DNA of 64,000 nucleotides, from NCBI GenBank assembly GCA_963760795.1, contig CAVXEP010000015.1, positions 96,001 through 160,000 on the forward strand, in the 5' to 3' direction. The translations under genes were made by a program, and so were the position numbers. The notes under the pieces are model-generated. The model worked only from the letters and a program-made list of their open reading frames with translations, was not told where the DNA came from and did no database searches. Positions 10,493-55,773 of the stretch are shown here, piece after piece; the stretch's first letter is position 1, and the number at the start of each line of letters is the position of its first letter. The stretch is from an uncultured delta proteobacterium (GTDB lineage: Bacteria > Desulfobacterota > Binatia > UBA9968).

Positions 10493-11365
10493 TCAAATTT
10501 GTGAAGCACCTTCATTCGCTTTCATCGCCGCGCGCTTCACTAACGTCTTCACGATCGCGCGCTTGTAATGCTCCGAGCCGCGCAGATCGCTCGTGGGGCT
10601 GCATTCTTGCGACGCGAGCGAACCTGCTTCTTCCGCTAACTGCGGCGTGAGTTTTTTTCCATTGATCAACGCCTCGGCATTGCGCGCGCGCACCGGCGTC
10701 GCGCCGACACAGCCAAGCACGATGCGCGCGGTCTGAATCGTCGCATCCGAATTCACTGTCAGCCGCACCGCCACGCCTGCGCACGGCTTGTCGACCACCG
10801 AGCTGCTGGAGAAGCGAATGTATTCGATGCCCGAACGCGCAGGCAGCGGCGGCAACACAACATGGGTAAGAATCTCGTCTTCTGCCAAGCTGGTCGTGTA
10901 AAAGTCGAGAAACAGTTCTTCAACCGCAATCGTTCTCGGTCCATTGGGACCGGCAATTTTAACCTTGCCGTCGAGGGCGATAAAGATTTGCGCTAGATCC
11001 GTCAGCGCCTCGCCGGAAGCGAGATTGCCGCCCACCGTGCCCATGTTGCGCACGCGGATGTTGGCGACTTCCCGTTCCGCCGCGCACAGCACGGGACATT
11101 GTTCTTGCACCAGCGCGGAAGTTTCGAGCTCGCGGTGGGTCACCAGCGCGCCGATGGCCAAGCCTTCACTTGCATCGAAGCGGATGCCTTTAAGCTCGGC
11201 AATCTTTTTGATGTTGATTAGTGACGCCGGTTCCAACAATCCCTGCTTCATGAGAATGGTCAGATGCGCGCCGCCGGCAAAGACTTTCGCGTCACTGCCA
11301 TGCTGCTTGAGCAGCGCACACGCCTCGGCTACAGTCTGCGGTTCCAGGTAGTCGAAGTTTTTCAT
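10493..11365 (-). CDS. XDH-family FAD-binding medium subunit
   Basis: FDYLEP, AGG, RNMGTVGGNL, DLRGSEHYK. Confidence 0.93.
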   Translation of the reverse strand: MKNFDYLEPQTVAEACALLKQHGSDAKVFAGGAHLTILMKQGLLEPASLINIKKIAELKGIRFDASEGLAIGALVTHRELETSALVQEQCPVLCAAEREVANIRVRNMGTVGGNLASGEALTDLAQIFIALDGKVKIAGPNGPRTIAVEELFLDFYTTSLAEDEILTHVVLPPLPARSGIEYIRFSSSSVVDKPCAGVAVRLTVNSDATIQTARIVLGCVGATPVRARNAEALINGKKLTPQLAEEAGSLASQECSPTSDLRGSEHYKRAIVKTLVKRAAMKANEGASQI

Positions 11366-19255: not shown

Positions 19256-19350
19256 GGCTTTTTAAATCCGCCGACTTGGGTTACAGATGCACCGAGGCCA
19301 CGGGCCGGCGTTTACCGGTGAATCAGCCCATCCCTGGAGATTATTTCGTG

Positions 19351-41126: not shown

Positions 41127-42644
41127 TCACTTTATTAACCAGCTACGCTTCACTTTCAGCAGAATCAAGACCAACGTCGCGATCGTCATCGCCCAGGCGA
41201 ACCAGTCGCCGAAGCGGACGTAGTAAGTCGTTTCATCCAAAACATCCACTTCGGTCTGCATGACCGCCGCAGTAAACATCGGCAAGGTTTTGACCAATTC
41301 GCCCTTGGCATTGACCAATGAAGTAACACCGGTGTTGGTGACGCGCAGCAAGCTGCGGCGGGTTTCGATGGCGCGCGATTGCGCCAGACGCAGGTGCTGC
41401 CAAGGTCCCACCGATTTGCCGTACCATGCGTCGTTGGTGAGATTGATCAGAATATTGGCGCGGGTTTCACTGACGAACTTGCGCACCACCTCGGGCAGCA
41501 GATCTTCGTAACAGATGAGCGGCGCCACCCGCACCGCGCGCGGCAAATGAAACACCACCGGACCCGGTCCTGGCGTAAAACCATCGGCCATGGGCAACGC
41601 CGGAATCCATGACAACAATTTTGCGAAGGGCAGATACTCGCCGAAGGCGAGTAATACTTGTTTATGATAGCGGGCGAGAATCCGCCCCTTGACTGTCGGT
41701 AAAAAAAGCGGTGTTGAAGGCTTTGCCGTCGGGCTGCCCGGGATTGCCGCGAAAACTTTTCGCGCCGAAGATGAAGTAGGCGCGGTCCGACTTGAAAGCC
41801 GGCATCACGTCCAACGGCAGCGCCTGCACCCTCTCCGGAATGATCGCCTCGATCGCCGACTCCGGCCAAACCACCAGCGGCACGGCGGGGAGATCGTTGG
41901 TGAGCTGGCGGTGCTGGTCGAGGTTTTTTTGCGCCAGCACTGGATTCCATTTCATGTCGATGTCGACATTTCCCTGGACCACGCCGACTGATAATTTGCG
42001 CGCGCCGGCCATTTCGTCGCCGACACTCTGCAAACGCTGGAAGCCGTAAACCAGGGCAACGACGATCGCTAAACTAGCGTAAGCCAATGGCAGGATTTTC
42101 TTTCTCGGTTCCGCACTGGTGAACAGCGCGTGATAGAGCGCTGCGCTAAACCACATGACGATGAAACCAGTACCATAGGGGCCGACCAGGTCGGCGGTTT
42201 GGATCACCCAGAGAAACGTCACCTGGGAGTTGGCGATATACCACGGGAACAAAAGCGGAAAGAGAAATTCGAGGGGCACCCAAAACAACGCCGGGAAAGA
42301 TCAGCAACGGGCCGAAACCGATGCTACGCACGAGCAGGGCAAAGAGCGCCATCTGAATCCCCTGCAGCGCTGCATACAGCACGAAGACCACGACGCTGAC
42401 GGCGAACGGCAAGCCGCCGAAGACACTGATCGTATAGGTGAGCCAATGGAAGCCGATCAAGTGCGCCACCAGCCCCATCAACCAACCGTACAAGATCGCA
42501 TGCTCGTAGACTTTCGGCGCGATCGATGGCCCAAAACAGCGGCACGAAGGCAAACCAAGCCAACGGGAAAAACCACGGTTCGAGAAACGGCGCGGCAAGC
42601 AACGCCGCGGCGAGCATCGGCAGCAGGATGTTAGGTAATTTCAC
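41127..42644 (-). CDS. lnt: Apolipoprotein N-acyltransferase (several frameshifts)
   Basis: VQGN, WPES, ICYE, TNDAW, RAIE, NTG across consecutive frames. Confidence 0.9.
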
Positions 42645-48459: not shown

Positions 48460-48633
48460 AGCTCAAACTCCTCCGTGAAGTGAGCGAAATCCTATTCCCC
48501 GACCTGAGTAATTGCAACTATGGAATGGAACTATGGAAGGGCGCCATCGCGAAGAGACTATGAGCTGAGACCAGATGCGGGGCTGAGCGGTCGGTTCTTG
48601 CTCCGACTAATCGCCAGCCCGATGACCAATCGC

Positions 48634-48780
48634 TTAAAGCATCCGATAATTGCGCACGGACACCCAGACCGCAACAAAGACAACGACGAGCGAAACAATC
48701 GGATGATTCAAAACCCACGCGAGCGACGGTTCAAGAGCATGGCGCGAAATCAATTCGAAGTACCGTGATAGAAGATCCAT
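48634..48780 (-). CDS. 48-aa small membrane protein
   Basis: Hand-translated MDLLSRYFELISRHALEPSLAWVLNHPIVSLVVVFVAVWVSVRNYRML; GAGG upstream; one TM. Confidence 0.6.
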   Translation of the reverse strand: MDLLSRYFELISRHALEPSLAWVLNHPIVSLVVVFVAVWVSVRNYRML

Positions 48781-49198
48781 ATAATGCCTCTGTTTGGTTG
48801 GTTTCTGGTTATTCTACAGCAACCGGCGTTTCCGAATACCACAAACTAGCCCGATGCGAATTCCTCAGGTCAATCATTGACGCCGCTGTCATCAATCCGC
48901 CAAGGGCACCGAGCTCAATTTTTTGAAGAGACTCCAGGTGTCGGCCCGGCGAGTGTCCGGCCATGAGAATCTGCCGTATCAACGACATTCACCTTGCTCA
49001 CGGTTCCCGCATGGAAGTAATTTTTGGCAGTTTTAGATCGTTAACGCAGGTTTCCCCCAGTTTTCCGTACAATCTTGGCTCGAAGTTGGACAATTCTGAA
49101 AGCTTTTCCGCCGACTTTCATTCCGTCATGGTCAGGGCAGCCTGCCGTAAATGACGAGATTCGTGAGGATTTAGTCCGTCCGATGACGTTTCGAGAGT

Positions 49199-49215
49199 CT
49201 GGCACCATGGTTGCT
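49199..49215 (+). promoter_or_regulatory. Sigma54-type -24/-12 promoter
   Basis: CTGGCAC-CATGG-TTGCT, exact GG-N10-GC spacing, in non-coding region. Confidence 0.65.
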
Positions 49216-49422
49216 CTATCGTCGGTATGTCAACGCAAACGAAGTATCATCCGATGAAACTTTTACTCGTAACCATGTTTAGGAAAGTTCCCGTGCGCAA
49301 GACCAAGCAGCGTGCCACGTTCTGCAAACAATGCGGCACAAGAATTTATTCGTTGACGTTTCTCAAGGCCCATCTCGAGTCCCATCAACGGAAGCCACAC
49401 TAAACACAAAATGGAGACAAAA

Positions 49423-49615
49423 AATGGATTTTTCAGTGATCCCGTGGAAAATCTTTCTCGACGCCCTGCAGCACCAGCAACCGAGCACGTTGGAACTTTG
49501 GTTGCACCGCTGGCTGTTCACCAACGACGGCGTAATCATGGCGACCACTGCCTGGCAAGAAACAGTGAGCCGAAGGAATAGTGGCACAGCCGATCATGAA
49601 GCTCTTCAAGCGTAA
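49423..49615 (+). CDS. Small hypothetical protein
   Basis: GGAG RBS before MDFSVIPW. Confidence 0.45.
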
Positions 49616-49832
49616 TTCGATCGACGATAGGCGGCGGCCGGTTGCGGCGCGCTGTAACCATCGGCTCGCGGTGATCGTCGATCCCAGCGAACGGGAATTG
49701 ACTGAACTCGAAACCATGCTCGCGCGATGTCCCAACTGCAGCCAATGGCATCCTGGCCAAGGACCGATCATGGCGGTGTTAACCAGCCGCCAAGACTCTA
49801 GCCAGAATAGTTCCAACCATTACATGCTGTGA
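49596..49832 (+). CDS. Small Cys/His-rich hypothetical protein
   Basis: CNH...CPNC; overlaps upstream ORF. Confidence 0.45.
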   Translation: MKLFKRNSIDDRRRPVAARCNHRLAVIVDPSERELTELETMLARCPNCSQWHPGQGPIMAVLTSRQDSSQNSSNHYML

Positions 49833-49871
49833 CCAGACTAGAGGAATCGCCAACCCTAGGAAAGTGTAACC

Positions 49872-50204
49872 ATGGAAGCTTTAAAGGTTGTCCTCCCCAG
49901 CGCCGAAAGCAAACCTTGCGTATGCGGCGCCACAATTTTTCGCACAGACGTAACTAGGCCCAGACACGAACCGATCTGGCTCTGCTCGCGTCACTGCGGC
50001 GCCTACGGGCTCACCTACGAAAGCGCGCTGCGGCGCAAAGTCAGACTGGATCTGTTGAGTTGGGGTAATCTGCGGCGCCATGCACAGAGGCTGATCGCTG
50101 CGGATGAGAAATCCGACGACGAGATTCCTCCGCAGTCCATGACTCTGCGCACCGCACCGGTTTGCGCCACATTGGCAAGCGGTAATCGTTTTGAATCGTG
50201 GTGA
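49872..50204 (+). CDS. Small Cys-rich hypothetical protein (possible Zn ribbon)
   Basis: AGGA RBS; CVCG...CSRHCG. Confidence 0.5.
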   Translation: MEALKVVLPSAESKPCVCGATIFRTDVTRPRHEPIWLCSRHCGAYGLTYESALRRKVRLDLLSWGNLRRHAQRLIAADEKSDDEIPPQSMTLRTAPVCATLASGNRFESW

Positions 50205-50490
50205 AATAGCCGGAGGAAAGATCCTCGGCCTGAGTCCGCCCGCTCGCAACATCAATATAAACCGGGAATTCGCGCCGCTCAGTGCCAACTTGATAAATTG
50301 ATGAGCGCTGACGTCAGTTCAAGCTGAGATTTTTGGCGTTGGTAAAACCTGATATCAACTAGTGCGAACCGTTAGACTGATAAGAAATCCTGTGTTGTAA
50401 ACATCCCTCACACTGCGCCGCGCGCGCTGGACTGTGCGGCGAAATTTGTTGAAAGCAAGAATTGATCGGTTCGGTTTGTTGGCGCTAGAT

Positions 50491-50907
50491 TCAGAAGGCG
50501 CTTGGCTGAAGATGAATATCCCCGCTCTGACCGCTGGCAATACGCAAAATCTTTTGACGCTCAGGACTAATGATGACCGCCGCTTCAGAAACGCCTCCAC
50601 CACAAAAGCTGCTGATCGAAGTAGCCGCTACAACGTGCTCACCAAGGGGAACGAAAATCTCGACCTTTTCTGACGGTGCGAGATCGGCAACTGGCACGGC
50701 ACCGACGAAAACCCGAATGGTGCAAGCCGAACCCATGAAACCACCGTCACGCTTGATAACGAGGCTCCCCGTGTACTGGGCTTCCGCTAACAAGTGCGGT
50801 GCCAGGATTCGCGAGGTCGGCACCTGGGATGCCTGATTAATGGCGATCGGGGAGGTGGCACACCCCATGAACAACAGAGTTACTAATACGGGAAAGGCAC
50901 GCATCAT
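50491..50907 (-). CDS. Lipoprotein (DUF2846-like)
   Basis: Lipobox LFMGC; RDGGFMGSAC; beta-rich. Confidence 0.75.
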   Translation of the reverse strand: MMRAFPVLVTLLFMGCATSPIAINQASQVPTSRILAPHLLAEAQYTGSLVIKRDGGFMGSACTIRVFVGAVPVADLAPSEKVEIFVPLGEHVVAATSISSFCGGGVSEAAVIISPERQKILRIASGQSGDIHLQPSAF

Positions 50908-51245
50908 GCGTCCTGATAATGTGACTGGTCTCGACGGCTTTACAGTATTCATTAGTTTTTTCTCCTCGGCATGTCGCAAGCCGCCACATGCACGGTAGAT
51001 CACTCAGTTGTTAAAGGGTTTCGTGCAACGCAGGTTTAGCGTTTTAGCCGGCCGTGCTGACGATTCCGGCGCGAAGCGTTTAGTTCCACGATGCTACAGT
51101 TCATCACCCTCAAAAAAATACGACACAACCTTTTCTATCTAATATGCCATCACACCACGAATCTATCATAGAACGATATCGGTAGAAGTTACGACAACCC
51201 TACAATTTTTTTTGCGTCTAACAAAGTAATGGCAATGTAGACGGC

Positions 51246-51275
51246 AAAAACGAACTTCCGCGACTAGAGCGGAAG
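51246..51275 (-). terminator. Putative intrinsic terminator downstream of the tRNA 3' fragment
   Basis: Minus strand CTTCCGC-7nt-GCGGAAG followed by TTCGTTTTT. Confidence 0.5.
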
Positions 51276-51303
51276 ACGTAACGGATTGGATTTTAAGAGG
51301 TAA

Positions 51304-51329
51304 AAATGTGGCCAGGGACGGAATCGAAC
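51304..51329. repeat. att direct repeat (tRNA-Phe 3' end copy)
   Basis: aaatgtggccagggacggaatcgaac identical to 53169-53194. Confidence 0.92.
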
Positions 51330-51384
51330 AATGGACACGGGGCCTAAAATTAGTATCAAGATATGGATCGACTGAAAATAGCCG

Positions 51385-51417
51385 TTGCTAACTTATAGGC
51401 TGAAATGTACACTTCAG
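51385..51417 (+). promoter_or_regulatory. Sigma70 promoter with overlapping TGTACA palindromic operator
   Basis: TTGCTA-N17-TACACT; CTGAA-A-TGTACA-C-TTCAG covers the -10 box. Confidence 0.7.
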
Positions 51418-51438
51418 CCATCAAGGGGGTCAACGGCT

Positions 51439-51693
51439 ATGGCACAGGTAAACACGGTAAATGCGCGGGCACAGTTTTCAGATATCATTAATCGGGCGGC
51501 TTTCGGCAAAGAGCGGGTCACGCTTACCCGCAGGGGCAAAGAGATCGTCGCCGTGGTGCCGATCGAGGATGTGAAGTTGCTGGAAGCATTGGAAGACAAA
51601 ATCGATCTTGAAGAGGCGCGGGCTGCGCTGGCGGAGTCCAAGAAGAAAGGCACCGTGTCTTGGGACAAGATCAAGAAAGAGCTGGGCATATAG
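51439..51693 (+). CDS. Phd/YefM-family antitoxin
   Basis: NARAQFSDIINRAAFGKERVTLTRRGK; acidic C-terminal half. Confidence 0.92.
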   Translation: MAQVNTVNARAQFSDIINRAAFGKERVTLTRRGKEIVAVVPIEDVKLLEALEDKIDLEEARAALAESKKKGTVSWDKIKKELGI

Positions 51694-51963
51694 TTGGCTT
51701 ACCGGATTGAGTTTACACCCAAAGCCCAGCGCGATTTTAAGGCCCTCGATGGCTCGATACGCGGCCGGATTGCGCGGCGAATTGACTCGTTGGCGGAGAA
51801 CCCGTTTCCATCGGGTATCAAGAAGCTTGAAGGCGAAGATGAGCTTTACCGCTTGCGCGTGGGCGACTATCGGGTGCTCTATCAAGTGCAAGGCAAAGTG
51901 TTGTTGGTTTTGATTGTGGGCATGGGTCATAGACGAGACATTTACCGGCGGATCGGGGGATAG
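51694..51963 (+). CDS. RelE/ParE-family toxin
   Basis: YRIEF..KA.RD, KKLEG, YRLRVGDYRVLY, GHRRDIY. Confidence 0.93.
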   Translation: MAYRIEFTPKAQRDFKALDGSIRGRIARRIDSLAENPFPSGIKKLEGEDELYRLRVGDYRVLYQVQGKVLLVLIVGMGHRRDIYRRIGG

Positions 51964-51965
51964 TC

Positions 51966-53235
51966 ATGGCAAAAGGCATCTACGAGCGCAAAGGTTTGAA
52001 CGGCGACGTTACCTACTACATCCGTTACCAGGTCGACGGCACGGACATCAAAGAGCGCGTCGGCCGGAAGTCGCGGGGGTTCACTCGCGAGATGGCTAAG
52101 GATGCTTTGAGAGCGCGGCTCGGTGAGATCACCCAAGGTCGGTTCAATCTGGAGAAAACCCGTAAGCCTATCCCATTCTCAAAACTGGCGGAACGTTACC
52201 GCGAATACGGCGCCAGCACCAAGCGCGCATGGGACGACGAAAAGCATATTACCGAACGGTTCGCGGACCTATTCGGGGAGACACCGTTGGCGTTGATCAC
52301 AACTTGGCAGATCGAGAAGTGGAAGGGTGAGCGCGGCAAGGAGATCAAGCCGGGATCGGTGAACCGCCAGCTAACCGTCATCAAGCATATGTTCAAAATG
52401 GCCATCGAATGGGGCATGACGTTGACCAATCCGGCGAGCGCTGTGAAACGCTTACCTGTGAACGATCAAAGAACCCGTTTCTTAACCGGCGATGAAATCC
52501 AGGCAATTCTCAAAACTTGTGAAAGTCAGATCACTTCGCCGTGGTTGCTCCCCTCGTGACGCTGGCGCTCAATACCGGCATGCACCAGGGCGAGCTTTTG
52601 AATCTGAAATGGGAAGCTGTGAATCTCGCGCAGGGACTGATAACCGTGCGGCAATCGAAAACCCTTCGGCTAAAAACCATCGCAATCAATGCGCCGGCCA
52701 AAGATGCGCTAGATTGGCTTGGTGAAAACCGGTATGGAGAATATCTCTTCATGTGGCCGTGGGGCGATAAGATCGGCAAGGTCACTGTTTACGATGCTTT
52801 CAAAAAGCCTGTAGCGCGGCAGAGATCACCGATTTTCGCTTTCACGATCTGCGCCATACCTTTGCGTCTAATCTAGTCATGGCAGGCGTGGATTTGGTCA
52901 CTGTGAAGGAACTCATGGGCCATGTCGGCATCGCTATGACCGTGCGTTACTCTCACCTGGTGCCAGAGCACAAAGCGCAGGCCGTGACCAAATTGAGCGA
53001 ACGGTTCGACGGATTCAAAACTGAATCGGCGAATCAAAGCGCAATCGTTTCACCGGAACTGAAAGAGGCGATCAATGCAGTTTTGCCGCTGAACTTGGAA
53101 CAAGACCGGAACGTTTTCTTAATGCGGATGGGACGTGGATTGAAAATCGTTAGTGATGTTAAGAGGTTAAATGTGGCCAGGGACGGAATCGAACCGCCGA
53201 CACGGAGATTTTCAGTCTCCTGCTCTACCGACTGA
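51966..53235 (+). CDS. Tyrosine integrase (two homopolymer frameshifts near 52552 and 52804)
   Basis: SVNRQL, RFLT, TGMHQGEL, FHDLRHTFAS, MGH...MTVRYSH across three frames. Confidence 0.88.
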
Positions 53236-53246
53236 GCTACCTGGCC
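53174..53246 (-). tRNA. trnF: tRNA-Phe (GAA), CCA not encoded
   Basis: GGCCAGGTAGCTCAGTCGGTAGAGCAGGAGACTGAAAATCTCCGTGTCGGCGGTTCGATTCCGTCCCTGGCCA cloverleaf. Confidence 0.97.
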
Positions 53247-53299
53247 AAAAGAAGTGAACCTGGAATATTGCTTAAAAGTTTCGGCGAGTCAAGTTTGAC

Positions 53300-54262
53300 C
53301 TAGGCTTTGGCGAGCTTTTCGACCTGGCGTTCGACGAAATCGATGACTTGGCTTTCGAGGCGCACGCCGTCTAAAGAATTAATTTCTTGGATGCCCGTCG
53401 GACTGGTCACGTTAACCTCGGTGAGAAAGTTGCCGATCACGTCCAGACCGACGAAGTAAAGCCCATCCGCGCGCAGAAGCGGCGCCAGCGCCGCGCAAAT
53501 CTCCCGGTCGCGCTCAGTCACTTCGCTCTTCACGCACTGGCCGCCGACATGAATGTTGCCGCGGGTTTCCGACTCCAGCGGCACGCGTAAGACCGCGCCG
53601 AGCGGCTCGCCGTTGAGAACGATGATTCGTTTGTCGCCCTGGCGGATCTCGGGCAGGTAGCGTTGCCCCATCACCAGCCGCCGGCCGTTGTCGGTGGCCG
53701 CTTCGAGAATCGAATTGGTGTTGCGGTCCTGGCCGTTTAAGTAAAACACACCGCTGCCGCCGCAGCCGTCGAGCGGCTTGACGATCAGCTCGCCGCCCAG
53801 TTCATCCATGAACGCGCGCAGCCGCTCCATATTGCTGCTCACCAGCGTCTGCGGGATCTGTTCCGGAAAGCGCATGGCATAAAGTTTTTCGTTGGCCTCG
53901 CGCAGCCCCTTGGGATTGTTCATGAGAAAACATTTGCTCGGGTCGATCAAACTGAGCAGATGAGTGGCGAAGAAAAATTTCATGTCGAAGGGCGGATCTT
54001 TGCGCATCCACACCGTGTCGAAGTCCGCCAGCGATCCGGTGGCAAATTCACCAAGTTGGGTGTGAGGGGTGGCACGGGCCAGTTGCAGCCGGCGATAGCG
54101 GCCATGGGTGGCGCCGCCGCGCACGAACAGATCGTCGACTTCCATGAAATAAAGTTCATGGCCGCGCCGCTGGGCTTCGAGCATCAGGACGAAGGTGGTG
54201 TCCTTGTCGATGTTGATGTTTTCGACGGGGTCCATCACGACCCCGATTCGGAGTTTCCTCAT
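53300..54262 (-). CDS. gshB: Glutathione synthetase
   Basis: VMDP, KDTT, MRKDPPFD, NEKL, GDKR, EVNVTSPTG. Confidence 0.96.
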   Translation of the reverse strand: MRKLRIGVVMDPVENINIDKDTTFVLMLEAQRRGHELYFMEVDDLFVRGGATHGRYRRLQLARATPHTQLGEFATGSLADFDTVWMRKDPPFDMKFFFATHLLSLIDPSKCFLMNNPKGLREANEKLYAMRFPEQIPQTLVSSNMERLRAFMDELGGELIVKPLDGCGGSGVFYLNGQDRNTNSILEAATDNGRRLVMGQRYLPEIRQGDKRIIVLNGEPLGAVLRVPLESETRGNIHVGGQCVKSEVTERDREICAALAPLLRADGLYFVGLDVIGNFLTEVNVTSPTGIQEINSLDGVRLESQVIDFVERQVEKLAKA

Positions 54263-54283
54263 GACGATTGCATCCTACGAAAT

Positions 54284-55031: not shown

Positions 55032-55773
55032 CTAAGTCAAATCGCCCCAAAGGAACTGCACCAAGGACAAAGCAGTCACCGCGGCGGTCTCAGCGCGCAA
55101 AATGCGCCGGCCTAAATGGACGCTGTGGAAACCCCGTGCGTTCGCCAATTGCACTTCAGCGCTGCTCAAGCCGCCCTCGGCACCGATGGCGACCAAGATC
55201 GCCGTCGCGTTAGCATGGGCCTCATGAATCTGGCGCAGCGATTGCACCGTCTCCTTTCTCCCAGAAAACAACTTGAGCTGGCCGCAGCCAGCACCCTCGA
55301 CCATCTGCGTCGAATTCGCACAGCGGCATAATCTCCGGCACCTGGGTCCGGCCGCATTGTTTCGCCGCGCTCAGCGCGATCTTCTGCCAGCGCTCGGTGC
55401 GATTGGCGATTTTCTTGTCGTCGAGCTTGGGCACGGTAAAACTTGAGGTAAACGGCATGATCGAAGCCACGCCAAGCTCCGTCGCCTTCTCGACGACAAA
55501 GTCCATCTTTTCGCCCTTGGTTAACCCCAGCGCCAAAGTCAGCGCCAGCGGCGATTCTCGACCGGCTTCATAGGAGCGGCGAATTTCGAGCTCACCCCGA
55601 TCGGCGTGGAGGCTGCGAATCACCGCTTCATGTTCCCAGCCGGTGTCATCGAACAGCGTCACGGGATCGCCCACGGTCAAGCGCAGCACGCGGCGCAGAT
55701 GCTCCAGTTCCTGACCGGCGATGGTCGCGCTGGTCGCTTGGATATTCTCTTTGCGGACGAAGAATCGAGCCAT
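55032..55773 (-). CDS. rsmE: 16S rRNA m3U1498 methyltransferase (frameshift near 55305)
   Basis: HLRRVLRL, KATELG, AAKQCGR; EGG, LGRRILRAETA; follows prmA. Confidence 0.92.

Follow-up and report, generated by a model that had tools for sequence, protein, structure and literature searches.

A 1865-bp islet inserted at the only tRNA-Phe gene of an uncultured Binatia bacterium is the smallest member of a family of tyrosine-integrase islands that carry an HTH_17 excisionase-type gene and a primase and occupy tRNA-Phe or tRNA-Cys in Binatia-type soil bacteria. The islet and its target gene lie at positions 51304–53246 of the window, which is the whole stretch of 64,000 nucleotides from contig CAVXEP010000015.1 (assembly GCA_963760795.1) that was analyzed. 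The islet contains a phd/yefM-relE toxin–antitoxin (TA) pair followed by a tyrosine integrase gene (int). It is most likely a reduced derivative of larger islands, and the favored explanation, with a probability of about 0.6, is that it is a stranded, minimal derivative of the small-island family in which the TA pair has been retained. The locus is ordinary in kind: decaying tRNA-associated islands and TA pairs left as islets are already known, and a new class of mini-element is not established.

Site-specific insertion at tRNA-Phe

The islet is bracketed by an exact 26-bp direct repeat, with copies at 51304–51329 and 53169–53194 that start 1865 bp apart and contain no mismatches. No third site with up to three mismatches is present in the whole 64-kb window, and 100 shuffles yielded no match. 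The same coordinates had been given in an earlier note on this DNA, which had described the repeat as overlapping the 3′ end of tRNA-Phe and bracketing 1865 bp. The similarity of the two ends runs on imperfectly beyond the core, to 37 nt at 89% identity, and to about 48 bp when the sequences are compared by eye (51293–51340 and 53159–53205). The right copy forms the 3′ end of tRNA-Phe(GAA), which is encoded on the minus strand at 53173–53246 and is the single tRNA-Phe among the 43 tRNAs identified by ARAGORN in the genome. The features of the locus are as follows:

51304–51329, no strand: attL core, an exact copy of the tRNA-Phe 3′ end and 4 nt beyond
51330–51366, no strand: element left arm of about 37 bp, its likeness to other left arms being judged by eye, with no statistic
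51367–51438, plus strand: putative promoter/operator block of the TA pair, kept in six of six aligned loci
51439–51693, plus strand: Phd/YefM-family antitoxin of 84 residues (PF02604, 43.3 bits, cut-off 29.8; TIGR01552 above cut-off)
51694–51963, plus strand: RelE/StbE-type toxin of the RelE/ParE superfamily, 89 residues, TTG start (PF05016, 51.5 bits; TIGR02385, 29.4 bits, cut-off 27.9)
51966–53235, plus strand: tyrosine integrase, full length in three frames according to the alignment with the integrase of genome G006, with His in place of the first catalytic Arg (Arg-I)
53100–53168, no strand: element right arm, which overlaps the 3′ end of the integrase gene; element-type GGTT-AAATG replaces host GGTAAAAATG
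53169–53194, no strand: attR core, the 26-bp repeat in which the working tRNA now ends
53173–53246, minus strand: tRNA-Phe(GAA), the integration target

Comparison with the empty sites of related genomes places the boundary of the insertion inside the repeat. At attL, the host-type left arm ..GGTAAAAATG.., which is also found at the empty site in G019 and in G013, is kept and is followed by element DNA AATGGACACGGGGCC... At attR, the element arm ..GAGGTT-AAATG.. comes first and is followed by the genuine tRNA. In G019, the left flank (window 50491–51342, 88%) and the tRNA side (53155–54276, 96%) are present on one contig and overlap by 54 bp; therefore, the site is empty. Among the closest relatives, the tRNA-Phe site is empty in G019 and G013, as judged from the sequence, and in G002, as judged from coordinates. 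The islet is a clean site-specific insertion at tRNA-Phe with the pattern of attP × attB recombination and a crossover within the 26-bp core, in agreement with the previous assignment of the repeats as attL and attR. Thus, each end of the locus is marked by a direct repeat that originates from the 3′ end of the tRNA, and its target has an empty counterpart in related genomes. Its GC content is 0.51–0.56, compared to 0.58–0.62 in the host genes on its right.

The element entered by integrase-mediated recombination of its attP with the 3′ end of tRNA-Phe, with the crossover in the core; this step is demonstrated by the empty sites, and the integration regenerated tRNA-Phe. Because the intact 3′ end of the tRNA and the core are restored at attR, which is a complete target again, the previously suggested role of the islet as a blocker of the attachment site is rejected. 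By eye, the left arm of the islet is similar to those of the 8–10-kb tRNA-Phe islands of G006, L050, and L051 (GACACGGGG.., GGCCTAAA.., CAAGA..TG.AT).

The same locus is interrupted in G003 (L017, 2417–10814), where about 8.4 kb separate the conserved left flank from tRNA-Phe. The insertion lacks a tRNA-fragment repeat and an integrase match, and is therefore of a different kind. Further to the left in the window, a segment of about 2 kb (48460–50490) with no open reading frame (ORF) longer than 135 residues and a GC content of 0.48–0.56 precedes a lipoprotein-like host ORF (50491–51003). G019 has a counterpart of this segment that is 93% identical and differs from it by many small indels.

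Toxin–antitoxin pair and integrase of the islet

The two small genes of the pair are adjacent, with the antitoxin first, and both exceed the curated cut-offs of their families, as expected of a type II TA system. The earlier identification of a Phd/YefM antitoxin and a RelE-type toxin therefore stands, and the gene coordinates bear out the spacings of 0 nt between antitoxin and toxin and 2 nt between toxin and integrase. The best named match of the toxin among solved structures is RelE; the PDB matches include E. coli RelE, with an E-value of 2.6e-7. The C-terminus of the antitoxin matches the RelB model weakly, with 29.9 bits, which is below the cut-off of 50. The pair is present in a single copy in the genome. 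Relative to five relatives, dN/dS is 0.02–0.10 for the antitoxin and 0.05–0.14 for the toxin, and the TA pair is under strong purifying selection across the six loci.

The block upstream of the pair (51367–51438) contains an inverted repeat ATAGCCGTTG...CAACGGCTAT, a palindrome around TGTACA, and then a Shine-Dalgarno-like AAGGGGG. TGTACA-type operators belong to YefM systems. A scan for consensus promoters detected no sigma-70-like site scoring at least 9/12 on the plus strand across the islet. Judging from its sequence, the block may serve as the promoter, and phd-relE would probably be autoregulated from its palindromes. The gene int starts 2 nt downstream of the toxin gene and its ATG is preceded by a GGGGGA box; therefore, it is probably co-transcribed with phd-relE. 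The islet resembles the YefM-YoeB and RelBE systems of E. coli (RelE structures 4fxe and 4v7j) in that the gene of a Phd/YefM-fold antitoxin precedes that of a RelE-superfamily toxin, and in the TGTACA palindromes at the putative promoter. By contrast, the predicted pairing in the islet is mixed, with an antitoxin of the Phd type and a toxin of the RelE/StbE type.

In G006, an XRE-type HTH protein is encoded upstream of the integrase (L016, 9922–10209), and its last approximately 30 residues share 70% identity with the C-terminal part of the antitoxin from the window. The protein looks like a chimera that may have resulted from exchange or partial loss of the TA cassette. A similar protein is encoded in L052 (315–578).

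The integrase is encoded in three frames (51966–52559, 52541–52876, and 52879–53235), the products of which, placed end to end, are 89, 96, and 87% identical to the intact 430-residue integrase of G006. It is complete apart from two single-base losses. The first −1 shift is located in a C-rich run at about 52549–52553, and the second in a run of A at 52802–52806, which comprises five A in the window and six purines in relatives (six A in L050). Of the catalytic residues R..K..HxxR..H..Y of tyrosine recombinases, those in the motifs HDLRH and RYSHL are present; however, the Arg-I of the box LNTGMRQGELL is replaced by His (codon CAC, 52583–52585). In the 50 fetched loci with the box, the position is occupied by Arg in 48, by Lys in one multi-frame copy, and by His in the window. 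The earlier note was correct in recognizing a tyrosine integrase, which is of full length, but it took it for a single gene, which it is not as assembled. Over its whole length, the window integrase is nearest to the tRNA-Phe type (G006 and L050; 78–88% nucleotide identity), so that a mosaic origin is rejected. The integrase frame in the family continues for about 20 codons across the tRNA gene, which is encoded on the other strand (window 53173–53235; L016 11574–11636; L022 4887–4966). The C-terminal tail is coded across attR and would therefore change on excision.

The ORF search found no HTH_17 excisionase gene upstream of the integrase in the islet, and no gene for a primase or helicase, which are present in L036 and G006. 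No further ORF within the 1865 bp matches a protein family, and thus the relaxase, origin of transfer, or conjugation functions of integrative and conjugative or integrative and mobilizable elements are missing. The earlier observation that excisionase, replication, transfer, and cargo genes are not visible is hence confirmed. As assembled, the integrase would be disabled by the two frameshifts and the substitution of the catalytic Arg by His, and it is quite probably truly inactive. Because the excisionase is missing and the integrase is damaged, the islet is most likely immobile by itself.

Several observations weigh against the interpretation of the islet as stranded. The dN/dS of the integrase relative to that of G006 is 0.03–0.15, and changes polarized by outgroups number 12 amino acids on the window branch and 9 on the G006 branch; therefore, any inactivation must be recent. 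The islet also retains both att arms and two identical copies of the core, which a mini-element that is still mobile would need. The quality of the assembly is also of concern. In 34.8 kb shared with G019, G003, and G013, the window has 13 private single-nucleotide indels, of which about eight are uncompensated and split host genes. The private indels at 19331, 25685, 38169, 40197, 41691, 42503, 48293, and 55306 coincide with host genes that are split into overlapping ORFs, including rsmE (55032–55773, indel at 55306) and one gene broken into about three pieces or more (41130–42640), while rpoB and rpoC each form an intact open frame, of 1373 and 1389 residues, respectively. In a free-living genome, such private indels look like consensus errors, and ORF-based reading of the window therefore requires care. 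Since error-like single-nucleotide indels also hit housekeeping genes, the two integrase shifts are unproven. Both are −1 shifts in homopolymers, which fits either a consensus error of long reads or natural slippage. At 0.2–0.4 indels per kb, the probability of at least two indels in 1.27 kb is approximately 0.03–0.1, which is low but not negligible. A test based on ORF spans was discarded as uninformative about which genome carries each indel, since the GC content of this DNA makes long off-frame ORFs frequent, and the comparison with the three relatives was used instead. The His codon is located directly 5′ of a CCAGG site, and methylated CCWGG sites can give systematic base-calling errors. 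The best public sequencing runs contain only 0.26 of the sampled words; the contigs of the four best, which come from one study, do not cover 52174–52810, the region of both frameshifts and of the His codon.

If the shifts are assembly errors, and the His an error or a tolerated substitution, the integrase, both arms, and the TA pair could suffice for a working minimal integrative element that exists as a 1.9-kb circle and is held by addiction. The clean insertion, the retained arms with identical cores, the full-length integrase, 87–96% identical to an intact relative, with its low dN/dS, the error-like indels in host genes, and the existence of phd-relE-int modules with intact integrases in L036 and L038 all speak for such an element. 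Nevertheless, it is unlikely, because Arg-I is conserved in 48 of the 50 loci, the excisionase found in relatives (L036, L038, G012/L041, and L085) is missing, and a 1.9-kb circle with neither replication nor transfer functions has no evident route to a new cell. In addition, none of the eight other measured islands is smaller than 2.5 kb, and the pair is found in just 3 of the 49 metagenome loci with enough upstream sequence, all three with a decayed integrase. The integrase lesions, the missing excisionase, and the sizes of the other islands equally undermine the earlier proposal of a self-sufficient minimal unit that might form a distinct class. A bolder version is slightly more doubtful still: phd-relE-int with about 40–70 bp of arm on each side of the core would be a self-sufficient cassette for integration and retention, the frameshifts being assembly noise. 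The synthesis of the integrase would be coupled to the TA operon by the 2-nt spacing and a shared promoter, so that the balance of antitoxin to toxin gates integration, and the cassette would spread as a 1.9-kb circle and serve as an exchangeable backbone of larger Binatia islands.

The islet could alternatively have a dead integrase of its own and yet be moved in trans, through its intact attL and attR, by the integrase and excisionase of a related island. The identical 26-bp cores and the likeness of the left arm to those of G006, L050, and L051 are consistent with such mobilization, and so is the occurrence of related intact tRNA-Phe integrases in the genus and in metagenomes, in the same three loci. 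However, the genome offers no helper: besides the integrase of the islet itself, a tblastn search detected nothing but a C-terminal scrap at tRNA-Cys on contig C2, the remaining integrases being at most 31% identical. Relatives of the integrase were not found in viral contigs. The contigs of the four runs list neither a circle back-joint nor an empty-site joint, although contigs are a poor test that cannot show rare forms. Mobilization in trans is considered improbable.

The stranded islet would thus comprise the tRNA-proximal part of the family backbone, with phd/yefM-relE, int 2 nt downstream, and a left arm of about 37 bp, whereas the excisionase, primase, and cargo of its relatives would have been lost. 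The reduction to 1.9 kb could have happened either before integration, in the form of a mini-circle, or in place. The islet probably persists as a TA islet, given that strong purifying selection acts on the pair and that, by the logic of addiction, such a pair is hard to lose; the pair would be costly to lose or useful.

Related islands and stages of decay

The layout of the family in relatives is attL, cargo, primase, HTH_17 excisionase, phd, relE, int, and tRNA. Around the TA pair, L036 has a primase (Zn_ribbon_DnaG and DUF3631), an HTH_17 excisionase-type gene, phd, relE, and an intact 432-residue integrase next to tRNA-Cys. The phd-relE-int module with an intact integrase is also present in the 6.1-kb island of L038. 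The 3.85-kb island of G012/L041 has an integrase in two frames and three small extra genes, one of which is CAAX-protease-like. In L085–87, HTH_17, phd, and relE are followed by an integrase decayed into three frames. The 9.7-kb island of G006 contains a Toprim/AAA_25 primase, an HTH_17 gene, and the XRE-type HTH protein at the position where the TA pair would be, and the 8.2-kb island of L050 has an integrase without the pair. The HTH_17 excisionase-type gene was identified in L036, L085, G006, and G018, and an excisionase was seen by eye, as the end of a reading frame upstream of the antitoxin, in L038 and G012/L041. The excisionase is therefore present in every relative that was read upstream of the TA pair (L036, L038, G012/L041, and L085).

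The eight other islands that could be measured are 3,846, 6,137, 7,174, 7,880, 7,907, 8,230, 9,673, and 15,466 bp long; most contigs are too short to give the length of an island, and a long repeat was found in 2 of 80 metagenome loci. Islands shorter than 2.5 kb, for which the earlier note proposed a search, are not among them (range 3.8–15.5 kb). That note had also named two outcomes that would speak against its proposal. The first, that homologous integrases sit in larger islands and the islet is a one-off, holds in the sample; the second, that no empty site exists, does not. The locus points to an apparently undescribed family of islands in Binatia-type soil bacteria, in which phd-relE is located between the excisionase and the integrase.

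In the 31 genomes of the genus, including the source, matches spanning the junction of the TA pair and int occur in four (G000, which is the source, G022, G012, and the unpublished G004), whereas G017 has the pair without int and G002 a toxin fragment. The pair was found upstream of the integrase in 4 of 7 genome contigs, and in 3 of 49 close integrase loci from metagenomes that have at least 560 bp of upstream sequence. The three loci (L085–87) probably represent one lineage. Of the loci with a near-full-length integrase, 13 of 43 from metagenomes and 4 of 8 from genomes have its coding sequence split over two or more frames, and although assembly errors are possible there too, these counts indicate that decay of this integrase is common. 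Only two of the eight integrases linked to the TA pair are in one frame (L036 and L038), and those of the window, G012, G022, and L085–87 are broken. Broken integrases thus account for 6 of 8 TA-linked copies, compared to 10 of 40 near-full-length metagenome copies without the pair; the sample is small and its members are not independent. Integrases linked to the TA pair seem to have decayed more often than others.

Later stages of decay are found in relatives. In G022 (L049), a pair with 99% and 92% amino-acid identity to that of the window is located beside tRNA-Cys; an internal deletion and frameshifts affect the integrase, whose HxLRH box is mutated as well. Soil contigs X1, X2, and X4, from three runs of one study, have 52095 joined to 53139 with seven other letters in between. 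They lack 1043 bp of int but still contain the pair and the right arm. In G017, the pair is about 110 bp from tRNA-Phe, as measured from the ends of BLAST matches; int is missing, and a tRNA fragment is located 15.5 kb away. The G017 island also encodes a protein with an N-terminus that is TIR-like by eye (L018, 12675–13556), several putative GAF-sensor kinases, and other cargo.

The survival of the pair after the loss of the integrase in G017 and the soil variants, together with the strong purifying selection in six loci, could mean that the host has domesticated it for a benefit in stress response or phage defense. The integrase and att sites would then be decaying baggage, with no role for addiction. 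The distribution of the pair in the genus is, however, patchy, as the census of the 31 genomes shows, and the closest relatives have an empty site; domestication is accordingly judged very unlikely. According to the stranded-islet interpretation, the locus and its relatives form a natural series of decay, in which a full island loses cargo, primase, and excisionase, then the integrase decays, and finally a bare TA pair remains beside the tRNA. The series fits the view that many chromosomal TA pairs are leftovers of mobile elements.

Comparable loci are known from other bacteria. Tycheposons and their remnants in Prochlorococcus include fragmented integrases and leftover partial tRNAs (bioRxiv 10.1101/2020.12.28.424599). 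The islet shares with them a tyrosine recombinase beside a tRNA, direct repeats of partial tRNA, a primase/helicase and an excisionase in relatives, and the fragmentation of integrases. It differs in phylum, in integrase lineage, and in having phd-relE as a backbone between excisionase and integrase; the word “toxin” does not occur in the main text of the tycheposon preprint. Experimental precedents for the stabilization of an element by a TA system are provided by HipAB of GI21/CGI48 in Shewanella putrefaciens, which stabilizes an island (PMC8978831), and by ParESO-CopASO of prophage CP4So (PMC8706911). Like these, the islet has a type II TA pair on a tRNA-integrated element, for which a role in retention is proposed. 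Their carriers are 21–48 kb long or of prophage size, have a working integrase and excisionase, and were tested experimentally, whereas the islet consists of the TA pair and integrase only and is known from its sequence. Chromosomal islets that retain only TA systems after the loss of a mobile element have also been described (PMC12548467). As in those islets, the pair has outlasted the remainder of the mobile element; the islet differs in representing an early stage, with both att sites and a near-complete integrase. Cis-mobilizable elements (CIMEs), which are related to integrative and conjugative elements, are DNA segments flanked by att sites and defined as being without integrase genes (ICEberg 2.0, PMC6323972). 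As in a CIME, the att sites of the islet surround DNA that probably lacks a working recombination module of its own; however, a near-complete and possibly just-inactivated integrase is still present. Keyword searches of the open-access literature found no paper on an element consisting only of a TA pair and an integrase, or on this family of Binatia islands.

Remnants and repeats at tRNA-Cys

The only tRNA-Cys of the source genome (G000, contig C2, about 75700–76111) is flanked by the C-terminal remnant of an integrase of the family, with 43% identity over 92 aligned residues. The remnant is a second, older scar.

In L052, a 14-bp repeat of the tRNA-Cys 3′ end (313–326 and 2040–2053) is located inside the 5′ end of the HTH gene, 1.73 kb from the tRNA. 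The repeat may have arisen by chance or may be a secondary site of an integrase-mediated deletion. A 1.73-kb element composed of the HTH gene and the integrase was considered and dropped. The 328-bp sequence on the left side of the repeat is also found in L063 and L060, where it lies about 1.6 kb upstream of the integrase, and the position of the repeat inside the HTH gene likewise speaks against such an element.

The island of L038 has a distal 46-bp copy of tRNA-Cys 6.1 kb away. It also contains a 54-bp exact copy of the 3′ part of tRNA-Cys (11199–11252), which is positioned inside the 3′ end of the integrase gene, 81 bp upstream of the tRNA (11280–11355). The near copy may be a tandem duplication of the att site.

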